A DNA stretch of 64,000 nt. Origin: Candidatus Cloacimonadales bacterium. GTDB lineage: Bacteria > Cloacimonadota > Cloacimonadia > Cloacimonadales > JAFGVF01. Below the pieces are notes generated by a model. It made no database searches, was not told where the DNA came from, and saw nothing but the letters and a program-made list of their open reading frames with translations. The position numbers and the translations under genes are program-made. Location of the stretch: assembly GCA_963678315.1 (NCBI GenBank), contig OY782781.1:2237482-2301481 (forward strand), read 5' to 3'. Within the stretch, counting starts at the first letter, position 1, and every line of letters begins with the position of its first letter. Positions 9,892 through 60,142 of this stretch are shown here, piece after piece.

Positions 9892-10286
9892 ATCTGTCTT
9901 TGTTTTGCATAGATGTAATCAACAATATCTGATACTTTTAACACTGGTCCATTACTTATATCTTCAAGGATATCATTAATTCTTTCTTTGGACAAATGAG
10001 AGTATTTCTTTTCTAACTCAAAAAAAAGCTCTTTATTCTCTGATTTATATCTCACAATATCAGTCCTTAGATTTTTTAAGAAGATGATATCGGAGCTAAA
10101 AAAGGATGTGTTACTAGCTAAGGTAAACTCTTTTTTTATATCAATCGCTAACTCCATTAAGTCGATTGATTCAGCTTCTAGCTCTCTTATTATGTAAGTA
10201 TCACTGCTAATTACATTGATATCAATATCTAGTAAATCTGAGATAATTTCTTTGAGTTTTATATAAATTTCTTTTTTATTTAACAT
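9888..10286 (-). CDS. Acyl carrier protein-like protein with C-terminal extension
   Basis: The N-terminal ~80 aa resemble ACP, with an ELEAESIDLMELAIDI motif (phosphopantetheine Ser in DSL/ESI context). Total length is 132 aa, longer than canonical ACP. Confidence 0.6.
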   Translation of the reverse strand: MLNKKEIYIKLKEIISDLLDIDINVISSDTYIIRELEAESIDLMELAIDIKKEFTLASNTSFFSSDIIFLKNLRTDIVRYKSENKELFFELEKKYSHLSKERINDILEDISNGPVLKVSDIVDYIYAKQRQI

Positions 10287-13570: not shown

Positions 13571-13636
13571 TTTTAATCTTTTGTATTTTTGTCAACAAAT
13601 AATGCTCTATGTGACTCTTTAATCACTAAATGATAT

Positions 13637-13833
13637 TACACCAAAAAATGTACTAGGACTTGAAAATAGCACTATATTATTCCTGTGAGGGCGTAGCTTT
13701 AGCAAAGACTCATGGTAAGAATAACTTCCATAATAACAACAAGAATATATTATTACTCGAGCGTCGATTCTGTATGCTATTTTGCTCAACTATATAGCAC
13801 TATTTTCGTCACAACTAATGCTTCATTTGGGTT
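13637..13833 (+). mobile_element. MITE-like repeat, copy 1 (~197 bp), with imperfect terminal inverted repeats ACACCAAAAAATG...CATTTGGGTT
   Basis: About 85% identical over its length to the reverse complement of 58235..58399. It lies between the bio promoter and the terminator of the upstream oxidoreductase operon. Confidence 0.7.
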
Positions 13834-13856
13834 AAATACATTAAGTATAACAATAA

Positions 13857-21625: not shown

Positions 21626-22582
21626 CTATTTTATAATTGTAATTTTCTTAACTTGACTCCTTTCCCCATACTTAACATTTAGAAAGTATATGCCAGACGG
21701 ATAATCTAAATTCTGAATCTGAAAATATCCTTTCTTTGATTTAAGATTGTTTTCAGAATAAACTAATCTACCTCTAAGGTCATAGAGAGACAGACTTATA
21801 TTCTTATTACTTTTTTCCATAAATTCAATATTGAAACTGTTTATACAAGGTTGCGGATATATCTGTTTGATTAGCTGATTCTGCATAGGTTCAACCTCTT
21901 GAGAATTTGACACTGTTTTATGGTAGGTTACGATTAAGTGCGGATCATATGAATTTGATGAGGTTGGGTTATTTGAATATGAAACATAATCTGCTTCATA
22001 TAGTCCTATATCATGACCTGGAGGGAATCTCAGTCTAAACTGTGAGTATCCACGTGAATGTTCTATATCATTAAGATAGCTCTCAGTAATTGGAAAGGAG
22101 ACCCAGCCAACATGACCACTATCTTGCAGAACACCTACATTGGAAGTAAGTGGTTCAAGATCAAAAACAGAAGGAGCTAAAGTCTCATACTCTATGTGGT
22201 CTATATTTACTGAGTAGGGTGTAGTGTAGTAGTGTGGCCAAACAAGATCTATCCCATTATCCCAATAGCGCCAACAGTAAAGTTGAAGTATTACATTTGC
22301 CACGACGTAATCATTGGGAACAGGAATAGTCTCGAATGAAATAAATGATCTTAATTCAAAAATACCGGTTCCAACAAACTGAGCATAACCGTAGCCAATG
22401 TCTAAAGTTGTTAGATTGGGAAAATTGTAATAATCATGATAATCCATATTATAGTATATAGTCCCAGTCATAGGATTAGGTTCAGAGTATATTGTGTCAA
22501 CAAGAACTGAGTCATCTCTATCAGCATATAATTGTAGAATTAAGCTATATAGAATTAAAAAGATTAATAGATATCTCTTCAT
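21626..22582 (-). CDS. Secreted hypothetical protein with T9SS C-terminal domain (tandem paralog 1)
   Basis: Signal peptide and C-terminal YPQPCINSFNIEF...GIYFLNVKYG...KKITIIK CTD. About 82% aa identity to the adjacent ORF. Confidence 0.7.
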   Translation of the reverse strand: MKRYLLIFLILYSLILQLYADRDDSVLVDTIYSEPNPMTGTIYYNMDYHDYYNFPNLTTLDIGYGYAQFVGTGIFELRSFISFETIPVPNDYVVANVILQLYCWRYWDNGIDLVWPHYYTTPYSVNIDHIEYETLAPSVFDLEPLTSNVGVLQDSGHVGWVSFPITESYLNDIEHSRGYSQFRLRFPPGHDIGLYEADYVSYSNNPTSSNSYDPHLIVTYHKTVSNSQEVEPMQNQLIKQIYPQPCINSFNIEFMEKSNKNISLSLYDLRGRLVYSENNLKSKKGYFQIQNLDYPSGIYFLNVKYGERSQVKKITIIK

Positions 22583-22605
22583 TTCTTCCTCCTATTTATT
22601 TGCTA

Positions 22606-23562
22606 TTATTTTATAATTGTGATTTTCTTAACTTGACTTCTTTTCCCATCCTTAACCTTGATAAAATATATTCCTGATGGATAATCTAAGTTTTGCATTC
22701 GGAAAAGCCCCTTATTTGATTTTAGATTATTTTCAGAATAAACTAATCTACCTCTAAGGTCATAAAGAGACAGACTTATGTTCTTATTACTTTTTTCCAT
22801 AAATTCAATATTGAAACTGTTTATACAAGGTTGCGGATAGATCTGTTTGATTATTTGCTCCTGCATAGGTGTAACCTCTTCAGAATTTGACACTGATTTA
22901 TGGTAGGTTACGATTAGGTGTGGATCATGCGAACTAGATGAAGTTGGGTTATTTGAATAATTTACAACATCTGCTTCATATAGAGATATATCATGACCTG
23001 GTGGAAATCTCAGCCTAAACTGAGAATAATCATGCGATTGTTCAATATCGTTAAGATAGCTCTCAGTAATCGGGAAGGAAATCCAACCAACATAAGCACT
23101 ATCCTGCAAGACCCCCACACTGGAAGTAAGTGACTCAACATCGAAAACTGAAGGTTCTAAGGCTCCAAACTGTATGTGATCAATATTTACTGAATAAGGT
23201 GTAGAATAATAGTGTGGCCATATAAAGTCGGTGCCATTATCCCAATAGTACTGACATTTAAGACGTAACATTACACTTGATATGACGTAATCATTGGGAA
23301 CAGGAATAGTCTCGAATGAAATAAATGATCTTAATTCAAAAATACCGGTTCCAACAAACTGAGCGTAACCATAACCAATTTCTAAGGATGTTTGATTGGG
23401 AAAGTTATAATAATCATGATAATCCATACTATAGTATATAGTCCCAGTCATAGGATTAGGCTCAGCGTATATTGTATCAACAAGAACTGATTCATATCTA
23501 TCAGCATATAACTGTAGAATTATGCTAAGTAGAATTAATAAGATTAAGAGATGTCTCTTCAT
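22606..23562 (-). CDS. Secreted hypothetical protein with T9SS C-terminal domain (tandem paralog 2)
   Basis: 318 aa, same length as and collinear with paralog 1. The upstream RBS/leader sequence is duplicated too. Confidence 0.7.
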   Translation of the reverse strand: MKRHLLILLILLSIILQLYADRYESVLVDTIYAEPNPMTGTIYYSMDYHDYYNFPNQTSLEIGYGYAQFVGTGIFELRSFISFETIPVPNDYVISSVMLRLKCQYYWDNGTDFIWPHYYSTPYSVNIDHIQFGALEPSVFDVESLTSSVGVLQDSAYVGWISFPITESYLNDIEQSHDYSQFRLRFPPGHDISLYEADVVNYSNNPTSSSSHDPHLIVTYHKSVSNSEEVTPMQEQIIKQIYPQPCINSFNIEFMEKSNKNISLSLYDLRGRLVYSENNLKSNKGLFRMQNLDYPSGIYFIKVKDGKRSQVKKITIIK

Positions 23563-23947
23563 TTTTCCTCCATTTTAATGTATAAATTAATTATTTTTTC
23601 AAAACATATTATTAAGATTTAATCTGATAATAAAAAACTTCCCTAACCAAGTAATAGTTTATTTTAAAGCTGATCATTGAATTTATTTAAGTTTCTATAC
23701 TTTCTTACAAGATAAAACATTTAGCAAAAACCATTTTGAAAATAGTTAGTATTTTATTTATTGTCAATTACTTTATATACTTTTTACATAAAAGGGTATT
23801 AGAAAAGGCTTTTTCATGCTAAATGGACGATCTAAACCTGATAATATTTGGTTATACTAATAAGCCATGCTTAATAGCCTCTTGCATTAAACCGCTTTTT
23901 TATGCAAGAGGCAAGTAAACACGACATAATAGCCATTAAAGACAAAA

Positions 23948-36400: not shown

Positions 36401-36450
36401 TATATAAGGTCACCCTTACTTGCCTCTTTGAAAAAGAGCCGATTTTTCAA
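36401..36450. repeat. Second copy of the CACCCTTACTTGCCTC...CCGATTTTTCAA repeat (the 3' arm has degenerated)
   Basis: 36 of 40 nt identical to 58652..58691 in the same orientation. Located in the divergent intergenic region between the hybrid HK and the 852-aa gene. Confidence 0.55.
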
Positions 36451-36717
36451 TGAGACCCTTAAGGCAGGAATTAGGAGTTACTGGGAACAAACAGCTGCTA
36501 GCTGGCTAATAGAAGTGATGAGTTAGAGGAGTTAGCATAAAAGTAAACAGAATCCAGGATGGAATAATATTGAAAGTCTAATATCATCAAAAGACTATAC
36601 TTGTTATAGCTTCATTATAGTTTAATATTTTCTATAAATAAGAATATTCATTGACGTTTAATATGCTCTAGTTTAAATTAATATAATAAGAGCTAAGGTA
36701 ATTAATTTATAAATGAG

Positions 36718-53669: not shown

Positions 53670-53765
53670 GGCTGAGAGGGCAGGAATCGAACCTGCCAAA
53701 AACGGTTTTATCCGCTTCCTATCGGTTTTGAAGACCGACTGAACCACCAGATTCATCCTCCCGGC
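53670..53765 (-). tRNA. selC: tRNA-Sec (selC), anticodon UCA
   Basis: Folded by eye on the minus strand. It has a GGTTCGATTCC T-loop with a 5-bp T-stem. The 6-bp anticodon stem (GTCGGT/ACCGAT) carries loop CTTCAAA, giving anticodon TCA. The D-stem is 6 bp (TGAATC/GGTTCA) with 4-nt loop TGGT. The variable arm is long (~23 nt) and the acceptor is extended (8-9 bp) with one C.A mismatch. Exact ends are uncertain to within ~3 nt. Confidence 0.8.
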
Positions 53766-57406: not shown

Positions 57407-58603
57407 CTAATGAATTGCATATTGCTGCACTTCTTCGAACAATAATCTATCTCTTTTTATTTCGTTAGCTAACTCCTCTTTAGTAGGCAAGTAGTGTTTA
57501 TATTTTGAAGCAAAAAGCTGATTATTATCATTTAATATAGAATATTTTACGATAGTAGAATCCGTCTCACTACATAAAAGCATGCCAATTGTAGGATTAT
57601 CATCCTCACCTCTTTCTAAATCATCAAACATACGTACATACATATCCATCTGCCCAACATCTTGATGAGTCAATTTATCTGTCTTTAGATCAATTAGAAC
57701 AAAACATTTGAGAATATAGTTATAGAAAACTAAATCAATATAGAAATCTGAAGTTTCGGTCCTAATAAGCTTTTGTCTAGCAACAAAAGAAAAACCTTTT
57801 CCTAGCTCAAGAAGGAAACTTTGCAGATTAGTTATCAGAGAATCTTCTAATTTAGATTCTGTATAGCTTTTATTTCTTGGGATATCTAAGAATTCTAAGA
57901 CATAAGGATTTTTAAAGAAATCTTTTTGATTTTGTTTCATTTTGGCTGTCTTTTTTTCCATTTCTGCAATAACTGGAGCAGTTTCTTGAGAACTTAACAA
58001 TCGTTCATAGTAGAGAGTATTGTAATTTCTTTCTAATGTTCTATAAGACCAACGCTGTGACACAGCCTCATCTGTATAGTACTGTCTAGCATCACTATTT
58101 GTAATTCTGATTAGTACTCTATAATGACTCCAACTCAATTCGGGTCGCACTGCGGACCGAATTGGGTAAACATTATAAAACTGTCTCATTCTTCTAAGTG
58201 ATCTTTCATTAAAGCCTTTGCCAAATTCTTTTTTAACCCATATGATGCATTAGGTTTGACGAAAATAGTGCAGATTATTTCAGCAAAATAGCTTACAGAA
58301 TCGAAGCTCGAATAATATATATTCTAGTTAAGATTATGGAAGTTATTCTTGCCAAATAATATAGTGCTATTTTTCAAGTCCTAGTGCATTATTTGGGTTT
58401 AACTCCAAAGATAGTTCTTTAAGTAATTTCCTACCATAAGTTGCTCTATCCGCTCCTTTCTGTTCTTCTTCTACAATTCTTTTACCTATGAGCCAATAAG
58501 CTTGAACCATAGCGGAATTTACAACATTACGTGCTTTACTTCTAGCTTTATTTAAAATCTCTTTAATATCTTTTATAAGTTCATTTTCATGTATTTTTAC
58601 CAT
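57407..58603 (-). pseudogene. DUF1016/YhcG-family PDDEXK nuclease gene interrupted by a MITE-like insertion (N-fragment 58367..58603, C-fragment 57407..58250)
   Basis: N-fragment ...AMVQAYWLIGKRIVEEEQKGADRATYGRKLLKELSLEL and C-fragment KKEFGKGFNERSLRRMRQFYNVYP... are contiguous in YhcG-family proteins. Between them lies a 165-bp element introducing a stop. Confidence 0.75.
58235..58399 (-). mobile_element. MITE-like repeat, copy 2 (165 bp), TIRs AACCCATATGATGCA / TGCATTATTTGGGTT, inserted in the YhcG-like gene
   Basis: About 85% identical to the reverse complement of 13637..13833 apart from a ~32-bp internal deletion. Removing exactly 58235..58399 restores a continuous in-frame YhcG-like ORF (…LSLEL|KKEFGKGF…). 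Confidence 0.75.
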
Positions 58604-58651
58604 AATTAACCAGCTCTCATTTGCTTTACTAACTTATTTCCTTCATATATT

Positions 58652-58703
58652 CACCCTTACTTGCCTCTTTAAAAAAAAACCGATTTTTCAAGGAGGCAAG
58701 TAA
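58652..58703. repeat. Palindromic intergenic repeat (13-bp perfect stem CCTTACTTGCCTC / GAGGCAAGTAAGG around an A/T-rich loop containing CCGATTTTTCAA)
   Basis: Shares a ~40-nt block (CACCCTTACTTGCCTCTTT.AAAA....CGATTTTTCAA) with 36401..36440. A related palindrome with GAGGCAAGTAA is at 23877..23920. Confidence 0.6.
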
Positions 58704-58777
58704 GGAACAAGTATAAATTATATAGTTTTTAATTAAGAATAGCCCCTTATTACTTTGTTATTTAAAACAATAACACC

Positions 58778-60142
58778 TTATTTTCTTTCAAGAACGATAT
58801 AGTTTTCTATATGGTAAGTGTTAGGAAACATATCAAAAGGAATAACTTTGGAGACATTAAAGTCAGCTTTAATCAAATCTTGTACATCTCGCTTTTGAGT
58901 CATTGGGTTACAAGATAAGTAGAGTATTTTTTTAATAGAAGAACTTTTTATGAGCTCTCTAATTGATGTATCTAGTCCTTTTCTTGGAGGATCAAAAACT
59001 ATAGTATCAATGTTAACTTGGCTTATGAGCTTATTGAAGATTTGTTCAAGATCGTTATTGATAACTTTTAAGTTTCTAACACTATTGATTTGTGTATTTT
59101 CAATAGCATCCTGAGTTGCAAATTCGTTATTCTCTACAGATATAACTTGCTTAGCTTTTTTAGCAATGTATAAGCCAATAGTAGAAACTCCACTGTAAGC
59201 ATCTAAAACTATTGAATCTTTATCAATATCACGCAATATCTGATTATAAATATTCTCAGTTTGATCTCTATTTATTTGGAAGAATGATTGATAATGTATC
59301 TTATATTTCAATTGACCAATATAATCAAAGAAATAATCATTGCCGTATAAGACTTTATCTTCAGAAGCAAGAATCTTATTAGTGTTGGAGCTATTGATAT
59401 TCTGGATAATCCCAATAATTTCAGGGTATTCACTGGTCAAAGAACTAACTAATTGATTAGTAAAAGCAAGTTTTCTCTTTCTGGTTACAATAACTATCAG
59501 GAGTTGGCCTTGCTTGTTGATTCTAAAACCTAAATGTCTTATATTCCCTTTATGTGATTTCTCGTTATAAACTTGCTCTTTTGCTTTGGTTAAATGTAGG
59601 CAAATAAGTTTTGCAATGTTGATTATTTTTGGAGAAACTAGCTTACATTGGTCAGCTGAAATTACGTCATGAGTCATTGTTTTAAACAAACCAAAAGTAA
59701 TCTCATTTCCATTATTTGTAACAGGGAAATACATTTTATTTCTATAAGAATAGAATTTTAAAGAAGAACGGCATTGTTCAATTTTATCAACATATTGAGG
59801 AAATATATCTTCTATAATTGATTTCTTAAACATTGTTTGATCATTATAGTTAACATCAAGCCAATTACAACCACCACATTTAAGAAATGATGGACAGGTT
59901 ATTTCTTTTCTTTCTATACCTGGTGATATTAGTTTAATGATTTTCCCTTTAAAATAGTCTTTCTTTTCAGAGATAACTTTGATATTAACTACATCATTAG
60001 GATATGCGTAAGGGACAAAAACTTTCTTACCTTCGTACTCCCCCATTCCAAGACCTTTGAAGACAACTTTATCTATTTTAACATCTTTTAGAATCATAAT
60101 TTCCCAATCATTTTCATTATTCTTAATTGCCATACCATCCAA
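58778..60142 (-). CDS. 23S rRNA (uracil-C5)-methyltransferase RlmD/RumA family (TRAM + [4Fe-4S] + SAM MTase)
   Basis: Cys cluster CPSFLKCGGCNW, and SAM-binding VLDAYSGVSTIG, DPPRKG and C-terminal catalytic Cys motifs. 454 aa. Confidence 0.8.
   Translation of the reverse strand: MDGMAIKNNENDWEIMILKDVKIDKVVFKGLGMGEYEGKKVFVPYAYPNDVVNIKVISEKKDYFKGKIIKLISPGIERKEITCPSFLKCGGCNWLDVNYNDQTMFKKSIIEDIFPQYVDKIEQCRSSLKFYSYRNKMYFPVTNNGNEITFGLFKTMTHDVISADQCKLVSPKIINIAKLICLHLTKAKEQVYNEKSHKGNIRHLGFRINKQGQLLIVIVTRKRKLAFTNQLVSSLTSEYPEIIGIIQNINSSNTNKILASEDKVLYGNDYFFDYIGQLKYKIHYQSFFQINRDQTENIYNQILRDIDKDSIVLDAYSGVSTIGLYIAKKAKQVISVENNEFATQDAIENTQINSVRNLKVINNDLEQIFNKLISQVNIDTIVFDPPRKGLDTSIRELIKSSSIKKILYLSCNPMTQKRDVQDLIKADFNVSKVIPFDMFPNTYHIENYIVLERK

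Follow-up and report, generated by a model that had tools for sequence, protein, structure and literature searches.

A putative MITE insertion splits a YhcG/DUF1016 gene in one strain of an uncultured relative of Cloacimonadota

Between positions 57407 and 58603 of the DNA analysed here (the window, a stretch of 64,000 nucleotides from contig OY782781.1), the minus strand carries two open reading frames that resemble the two ends of a single YhcG/DUF1016 protein. The locus raises three questions: whether these frames were once one gene, what the DNA between them is, and by what route it arrived there.

The split gene and its intact counterpart

The native 5′ part of the yhcG-like gene occupies 58400–58603 (minus strand) and encodes codons 1–68 (MVKIHENEL...LSLEL), as seen from its translation. 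Its DNA is 98–100% identical to positions 10001–10204 of a contig from a sister strain (L001, described below), and its product aligns to the N-termini of 22 homologues. The native sequence ends in ...KELSLEL at codon 68, and the insert starts thereafter. The truncated 78-aa ORF (58367–58603, minus strand) is made of these 68 native residues followed by NPNNALGLEK and a stop codon, both supplied by the insert. The native 3′ part (57407–58234, minus strand) holds codons 69–343 and the stop codon, and its translation, the match to PF06250 and the homologue alignment place the whole PDDEXK domain within it. Gene callers annotate this C-fragment as an ORF of 260 aa that begins at the internal Met84 (57407–58189, minus strand; P0002). 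The open frame extends 5′ of that ORF to 58234 and reads KKEFGKGFNERSLRR in translation.

Joining 58400 to 58234 on the minus strand yields a protein of 343 aa. The rejoined protein matches DUF1016_N (PF17761) over residues 12–146 (E 6e-45, 153 bits, cut-off 32.8) and YhcG_C (PF06250) over residues 173–326 (E 3e-55, 187 bits, cut-off 32.5), the cut-offs being the Pfam gathering scores. The rejoined protein has both domains of the YhcG/DUF1016 family at full length, and it shares 59–72% identity with hundreds of homologues from many phyla. When 22 homologues from many phyla (59–97% identity) were aligned, the junction ...LSLEL/KKEFGKGF was collinear with all of them, and no residue was gained or lost. 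Residues D235 and K252 of the nuclease motif fall in invariant columns, position 250 is D or E throughout, and the window allele has all three. A search by sequence for a solved structure matching the YhcG protein gave none.

A protein search identified an intact 343-aa homologue (P0001) that is 97% identical to the rejoined protein. Its gene lies on the 3.02-Mb contig L001, with neighbours as in the window, and the intact allele spans L001:10001–11032. Upstream is the gene of a tRNA (uracil-5)-methyltransferase; downstream are genes for a 2Fe-2S thioredoxin-like protein, a HATPase and a NuoF-like protein, followed by selA, selB and dnaX. The two genomes share 98.9–99.1% DNA identity around the gene and 97.4% elsewhere, and the value around the gene identifies them as strains of one species. 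The alignment of the window with L001 contains a single gap of exactly 165 bp, at window 58235–58399. The empty site in L001 reads GGAGTTAAAAAAAGAA (in the sister sequence, CTTTGGAGTTAAAAAAAGAATTTGG) and is identical to the one predicted from the window. Only one assembly shows the filled site, and a single contig, of 2,988,751 bp, provides the sole record of the exact 78-aa protein.

The preliminary description of this locus had proposed that a MITE splits one YhcG/DUF1016 gene and that removal of 58235–58399 restores it. Both proposals are borne out: the two Pfam domains lie on the rejoined protein, the element is repeated and polymorphic, and the sister strain carries exactly such an intact sequence. 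Two findings would have refuted it, fragments that do not follow each other in one protein and a related strain with the 165 bp as native coding sequence. Both checks came out in its favour: the junction is gapless among the 22 homologues, and the site in L001 is empty. The reading of the 78-aa fragment as YhcG needs to be narrowed: the ORF is as described, but only 68 of its 78 residues are native.

The window and sister alleles differ by 12 synonymous and 12 non-synonymous codons. At several of the 12 positions at which it differs from the sister protein (e.g., E46, E47, R94 and D260), the window allele has the family consensus residue. As the allele keeps both the invariant and the consensus residues, the MITE is its sole lesion; decay of the gene before the insertion was considered and ruled out on the same consensus residues. 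The yhcG gene is also the most diverged stretch between the strains in a 16-kb region (window 57835–58800), the differences per 400 nt numbering 14 both before and after the insertion point but approximately 3 in its neighbours. Several proteins encoded beside it are identical between the strains, and the changes in yhcG fall on both lineages. In GC content the gene matches the genome. A fast-evolving defence-type gene, an imported allele and relaxed constraint are all possible sources of this divergence.

YhcG/DUF1016 proteins are predicted PD-(D/E)XK nucleases (PMC1189080), and the family is enriched beside R-M and BREX loci (PMC9881135). The intact allele matches the models of the PADLOC candidate PDC-S02 (E 2.7e-143, residues 5–336), and we regard the gene as a candidate, predicted defence nuclease. 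In contrast to family members near R-M or BREX loci, the window gene is solitary and lies between the tRNA (U5)-methyltransferase gene and a hydrogenase/selenocysteine cluster. The genes around it encode the tRNA methyltransferase, glycosyltransferases, NuoE/F-like hydrogenase subunits, SelA, SelB and DnaX. The link to defence or mobile contexts that had been suggested earlier thus survives at the level of the PADLOC candidate PDC-S02 but not at that of the locus, which sits among housekeeping genes and shows neither a defence island nor a mobile region.

Immediately beside selA and selB lies a tRNA-Sec gene (window 53670–53764, minus strand), an arrangement that indicates the use of selenocysteine by the organism. 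Further away, at 21626–23562, two tandem genes encode secreted proteins of 318 aa with a T9SS sorting domain and a mutual identity of 82–83%. This protein family was seen only in a handful of related genomes, and the named relatives of the lineage-specific protein come only from Candidatus Cloacimonas and Cloacimonadaceae (47–52% identity). Small indels that distinguish the strains, one of them of 25 bp, are concentrated in the spacer by the tandem genes (to approximately 23900). The host is, judging by its sequence, an uncultured relative of Cloacimonadota.

The 165-bp element and its family

The 165 bp absent from the empty site (copy B, 58235–58399) run from AACCC to GGGTT by alignment, and the A-run leaves their position free to shift by as much as 2 nt. 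Within them is a symmetric core, CCC...GGG, of 161 bp (58237–58397); should the TTTAA on either side be a target duplication, this core would be the actual element. The element ends read CCCARATNRTGCA..., and 17 of the 20 terminal bases are inverted-identical, the AACCC/GGGTT termini being perfectly inverted. Copy B folds end to end as one hairpin with an energy of −33.7 kcal/mol, compared with −11.0 ± 2.5 for shuffled sequences (z = −9.1).

The element has no coding capacity: stops occur in every frame, and ORFs confined to it reach 56 aa at most. The best-conserved reading frame of the MITE returned no match in a protein search, and the protein collection contains none of the spurious copy-A ORFs. 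In Rfam, no family reached the threshold for the element, and the hairpins gave only sub-threshold chance matches to plant miRNAs. A sigma-70 scan of the gene's strand found no outward promoter in the element; the counts were not above those of shuffles, and such a scan is weak evidence in this phylum.

Copy B belongs to a set of five independent insertions in three related genomes. Copy A (13636–13836, minus strand) is intergenic and lies between the gene for the gamma subunit of a 2-oxoacid:ferredoxin oxidoreductase and bioB. Its core spans 13641–13831, flanked by TTTAA at 13832–13836 and TGTAA at 13636–13640. Copy A is 85–89% identical to copy B and carries an extra internal module of 31 bp, and its orthologue stands at the same place in the sister genome (L071:10613–10811). 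Copy C (contig L256 of the sister strain, just outside the range of the window) is 165 bp long, 97% identical to copy B, and placed between a DUF2391 gene and uvrB. Copies D and E reside in the circular 2.88-Mb genome of another species (L264) and are approximately 79% identical to copy B. The element measures approximately 161–165 bp in copy B and 190–220 bp in variants with extra internal modules; the copies together range from 165 to 221 bp. When the two strains are compared, copy B is present in the window strain only.

Five independent sites, the filled/empty polymorphism, the TIRs and the lack of coding capacity together justify the term MITE for this element. The 97% identity between copies B and C indicates recent activity of the element in the species. 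No further copies were found in 21-kb samples of two more genomes. In genome contigs, the 18-mer ATTATGGAAGTTATTCTT matched 69 loci, every one of them by chance; a scan of metagenome contigs with TTAGNTNTGACGAAAATAGTGC gave one chance match, on a TARA contig; and scans of viral contigs gave no true copy. As far as seen, the family is confined to a few related Cloacimonadota-like genomes. Our literature search returned no paper on MITEs in Cloacimonadota, none on a TTNAA target and none that cites the sample accessions, and by Rfam and the literature the family appears to be undescribed.

The copies also differ in their internal architecture. A module of approximately 31 bp, GCTAAAGCTACG-N4-5-CACAGG, is found inside MITE copies only: at window 13672–13702 in copy A, at L264:8150–8180 in copy E and at L264:17131–17161 in copy D. 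Its orientation is constant, but copy A carries it in the right arm and copies D and E carry it in the left; copies B and C lack it. This module could be a nested mini-insertion, or it could have been exchanged between the arms. Copy E contains an additional GC-rich hairpin of approximately 25 bp, CCCCTTCTTCGAGGGG. Between the strains, the orthologous copies A have diverged by 5.1% (10 of 196 positions; window 13641–13836 against L071:10613–10808), approximately twice the regional average, and the copy A of the sister strain is closer to copies B and C than the window version is. The cause could be gene conversion within the family, or the window strain's version may have decayed faster.

A second family of short repeats is present in the same genomes. 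It is an intergenic palindrome of approximately 50 bp, CCTTACTTGCC(T/A)C-CTTGAAAAATCGG-T(n)-...GAGGCAAGTAAGG, which occurs in the window at 58655–58705 (just upstream of yhcG), at approximately 36410–36454 and at approximately 23870–23918, and beside MITE copy C at L256:16395–16458. The palindrome looks terminator-like or REP-like, and it explains the sub-threshold miRNA matches in Rfam. At approximately 36478–36525 of the window, adjoining one of these palindromic repeats, lies a segment of 47 bp (TAACTCATCACTTCTATTAGCCAGCTAGCAGCTGTTTGTTCCCAGTA) that the sister strain lacks.

The junction and the course of the insertion

On the plus strand, the filled site reads AATTC-T6-AA-CCC...GGG-TTTAA-CTCC and the empty site reads AATTC-T7-AA-CTCC. 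The T6 run of the window (58229–58234, plus strand; A6 on the coding strand) corresponds to a run of 7 in the empty site (A7, L001:10203–10209). Copy B is bordered by two direct repeats on the plus strand, TTTAA at 58398–58402 (TTAAA on the coding strand, on the promoter-proximal side of the gene) and TTTAA at 58232–58236, which stand at a period of 166. The flanks directly abut the CCC...GGG core in every copy of the family. They are TTTAA on both sides in copies B, C and D and in the copy A of the sister strain, TTTAA and TGTAA in the copy A of the window, where one flank is mutated, and TTCAA on both sides in copy E; the flank is thus TTTAA in four of the five insertions and TTCAA in one. 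In copy E the middle base is changed on both sides together, exactly as duplication of a TTNAA target predicts. Five matching 5-bp flanks point to such a target duplication.

Two statements of the preliminary description have to be revised here. It saw no clear target-site duplication at the junction, and a 5-bp direct repeat (TTTAA or TTCAA) lies beside CCC...GGG in all five members of the family. It also held that the boundaries of the element could be read to the base, which was overstated: the TT/AA can be assigned to the TIR or to the TSD, and copy B is 1 nt short of the TSD model.

This missing nucleotide is the main difficulty in the interpretation of the site. The TSD model expects a gain of 166 bp, the sole filled/empty pair shows a gain of 165 bp, and one A of the adjoining homopolymer is missing. 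TT/AA is self-complementary, so that the duplication could formally be of 1, 3 or 5 bp with longer TIRs, and each of these versions predicts the period of 166. The frame of the gene and the sister strain both need an ancestral run of 7, which leaves the window one T short of the duplication model. Read literally, 165 bp (AACCC...GGGTT) lie between T6 and TAACTCC, and at most TT is duplicated. The same site could then have arisen by insertion of the full 165-bp AACCC...GGGTT without any target duplication, if TTN^NAA (in this case TTT^TAA) were cut bluntly at its centre; what look like TTTAA repeats would then be the AA/TT ends of the element itself together with the halves of the target. This is the sole model that gives the filled from the empty site without an extra mutation, and the perfectly inverted AACCC/GGGTT termini agree with it. 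It is also favoured by the constancy of coding homopolymers: none of 100 A/T runs of at least 6 nt in coding DNA differs in length between the strains, as assembly-type indels would make them do, so the A6 is probably real. In non-coding DNA, 2 of 27 A/T runs of at least 6 nt, and 1 of 10 of at least 7 nt, differ by 1 nt. At this slippage rate, the duplication model costs one extra event with a probability of approximately 5–10%.

The flanks of the other copies weigh on the opposite side. Without duplication, copy E would need a TTC^CAA target, for which the chance of the C is approximately 0.15 at 31% GC, whereas duplication explains its flanks directly, and identical paired middle bases would be needed in five of five insertions. 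TIR elements without a TSD are rare. We consider insertion without duplication the less likely reading and favour, by about two or three to one, duplication followed by the loss of one nucleotide as the probable history of the site. The in-frame length of 165 bp is then probably a coincidence with a one-in-three chance, since copy B is 1 nt short of the TSD model.

Two further readings deny that the element entered an intact gene in the window strain. The 165 bp might be ancestral and the sister might have lost them by excision, which would make the window gene an old pseudogene; only two strains are available, and no outgroup polarises the event at the locus. Yet none of the 22 homologues has an insertion here, the window allele shows no decay beyond the insert, and copy B is young, being 97% identical to copy C. 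A deletion between the flanking repeats would, moreover, take out 166 bp and put the gene out of frame, whereas L001 has an intact A7 gene. We judge this reversed order of events to be very improbable. Slightly less credible still is an assembly artefact, in which a misjoin at a repeat put the 165 bp into a yhcG gene that is in truth unbroken. The filled site does come from one contig only, but the two junctions, clean to the base, fall within unique coding sequence, and copy B has private differences from all other copies. The contig is of megabase scale, the hifiasm-style names (ctg...c/l) of the sister assemblies suggest long accurate reads, and all 100 of the coding A/T runs are equal in length between the strains.

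Other ways of delimiting the insert were tried and rejected. Duplications of TA, TAA/TTA or TTAA each need 166 bp relative to the empty site, and the same holds for insertion 3′ of TTTAA in the manner of IS200/IS605. An intron or an intein-like in-frame segment is excluded by the stop after 10 codons, the lack of a matching RNA family and the absence of the 165 bp from all homologues.

The best explanation, taken whole, is a recent insertion of the MITE into the yhcG/DUF1016 gene with presumed loss of the full-length nuclease; we assign it a probability of approximately 90%. In its most likely mechanism, the TTNAA target was duplicated and 1 nt was then lost. A non-autonomous TIR element (MITE) entered the solitary yhcG/DUF1016 PD-(D/E)XK gene at a coding-strand TTAAA, where it separates codon 68 from codon 69. 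A DDE transposase was most likely supplied in trans by an autonomous IS, acting by cut-and-paste or copy-in. This transposase would target TTNAA and duplicate 5 bp (1 or 3 bp are formally possible) next to the CCC...GGG ends of the element. One A would have been lost from the adjoining A7 run, at gap repair or by later slippage, and this loss would make the net insert 165 bp, by coincidence a multiple of three. The in-frame stop of the insert, after 10 codons, would allow at most a 78-aa N-terminal stub, and an N-terminally truncated protein of 260 aa could be made only if the internal ATG is used. From this in-frame stop, loss of the full-length nuclease in the window strain is expected to follow. 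The 260-aa C-fragment retains the complete PDDEXK domain, which counts against loss of function. The insertion is recent, as the sister strain (approximately 99% DNA identity) is empty, copy B is 97% identical to copy C, and the split gene has no other lesion.

The event is real, recent and ordinary, and it reveals no new type of system; genes interrupted by MITEs are already well known, as are strains that differ in their defence genes. It provides a base-level, two-strain record of recent transposition in a lineage of uncultured anaerobes (relatives of Cloacimonadota) and establishes for that lineage a MITE family that clearly prefers TTNAA sites. It also suggests the strain-level loss of a candidate defence nuclease (PDC-S02/YhcG). 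The locus is useful for annotation and as a population-genetics marker, and its two alleles form a natural knock-out/wild-type pair for the function of the family. The mechanism, TTNAA duplication by an IS1380-like enzyme or insertion without duplication, is a point of some interest.

Relation to known mobile elements

The Cloacimonadota element shares many features with described bacterial MITEs, such as Correia/NEMIS of Neisseria, RUP of Streptococcus pneumoniae and IS-derived elements. Like them, it is short, non-coding and multi-copy, has long imperfect TIRs that fold into one hairpin and short AT-rich direct repeats, and varies in position between strains, so that it can split genes. It differs from them in having no sequence similarity to any described family that could be tested through Rfam, and in its variable internal modules of approximately 31 and 25 bp. 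The flank also differs: it is TA in Correia and IS630-type elements and TTNAA here.

No autonomous IS or transposase with the same ends was found in approximately 190 kb of related sequence, and several known types can be rejected as the parent. A MITE of the IS630/Tc1-mariner type does not fit, as no symmetric delimitation leaves a duplicated TA in any copy and the flanks of copy E have no TA. A PATE derived from IS200/IS605 does not fit either, the element being one end-to-end inverted repeat and not a set of separate subterminal hairpins. The piggyBac elements begin with CCC, end with GGG and target TTAA; an exact, piggyBac-like duplication of TTAA was rejected because the repeat here is of 5 bp and TTCAA flanks copy E.

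In ISEcp1, a member of the IS1380 family, the inverted repeats start with CC (IRL CCTAGATTCTACGT) and the direct repeats are AT-rich and 5 bp long (PMC6061673), and the IS1380 transposases form the prokaryotic outgroup of piggyBac (PMC10813416). The Cloacimonadota element is alike in its CCC...GGG ends beside 5-bp AT-rich repeats, with the reservation that its TT/AA may belong to the ends or to the repeats. It is unlike ISEcp1 in its TIR sequence, which is unrelated by eye, and the net insert of copy B is 1 nt short of the core plus 5. We treat the relation to IS1380 as a resemblance of ends, which offers a lead and not a membership. Tentatively, and with confidence well below even, we suggest that the element may be the first member of an undescribed Cloacimonadota MITE family with a TTNAA target, CCC...GGG ends and an IS1380/piggyBac-like transposase, or else a TIR element that inserts without duplication; either way, it would be active in a species represented only by MAGs.
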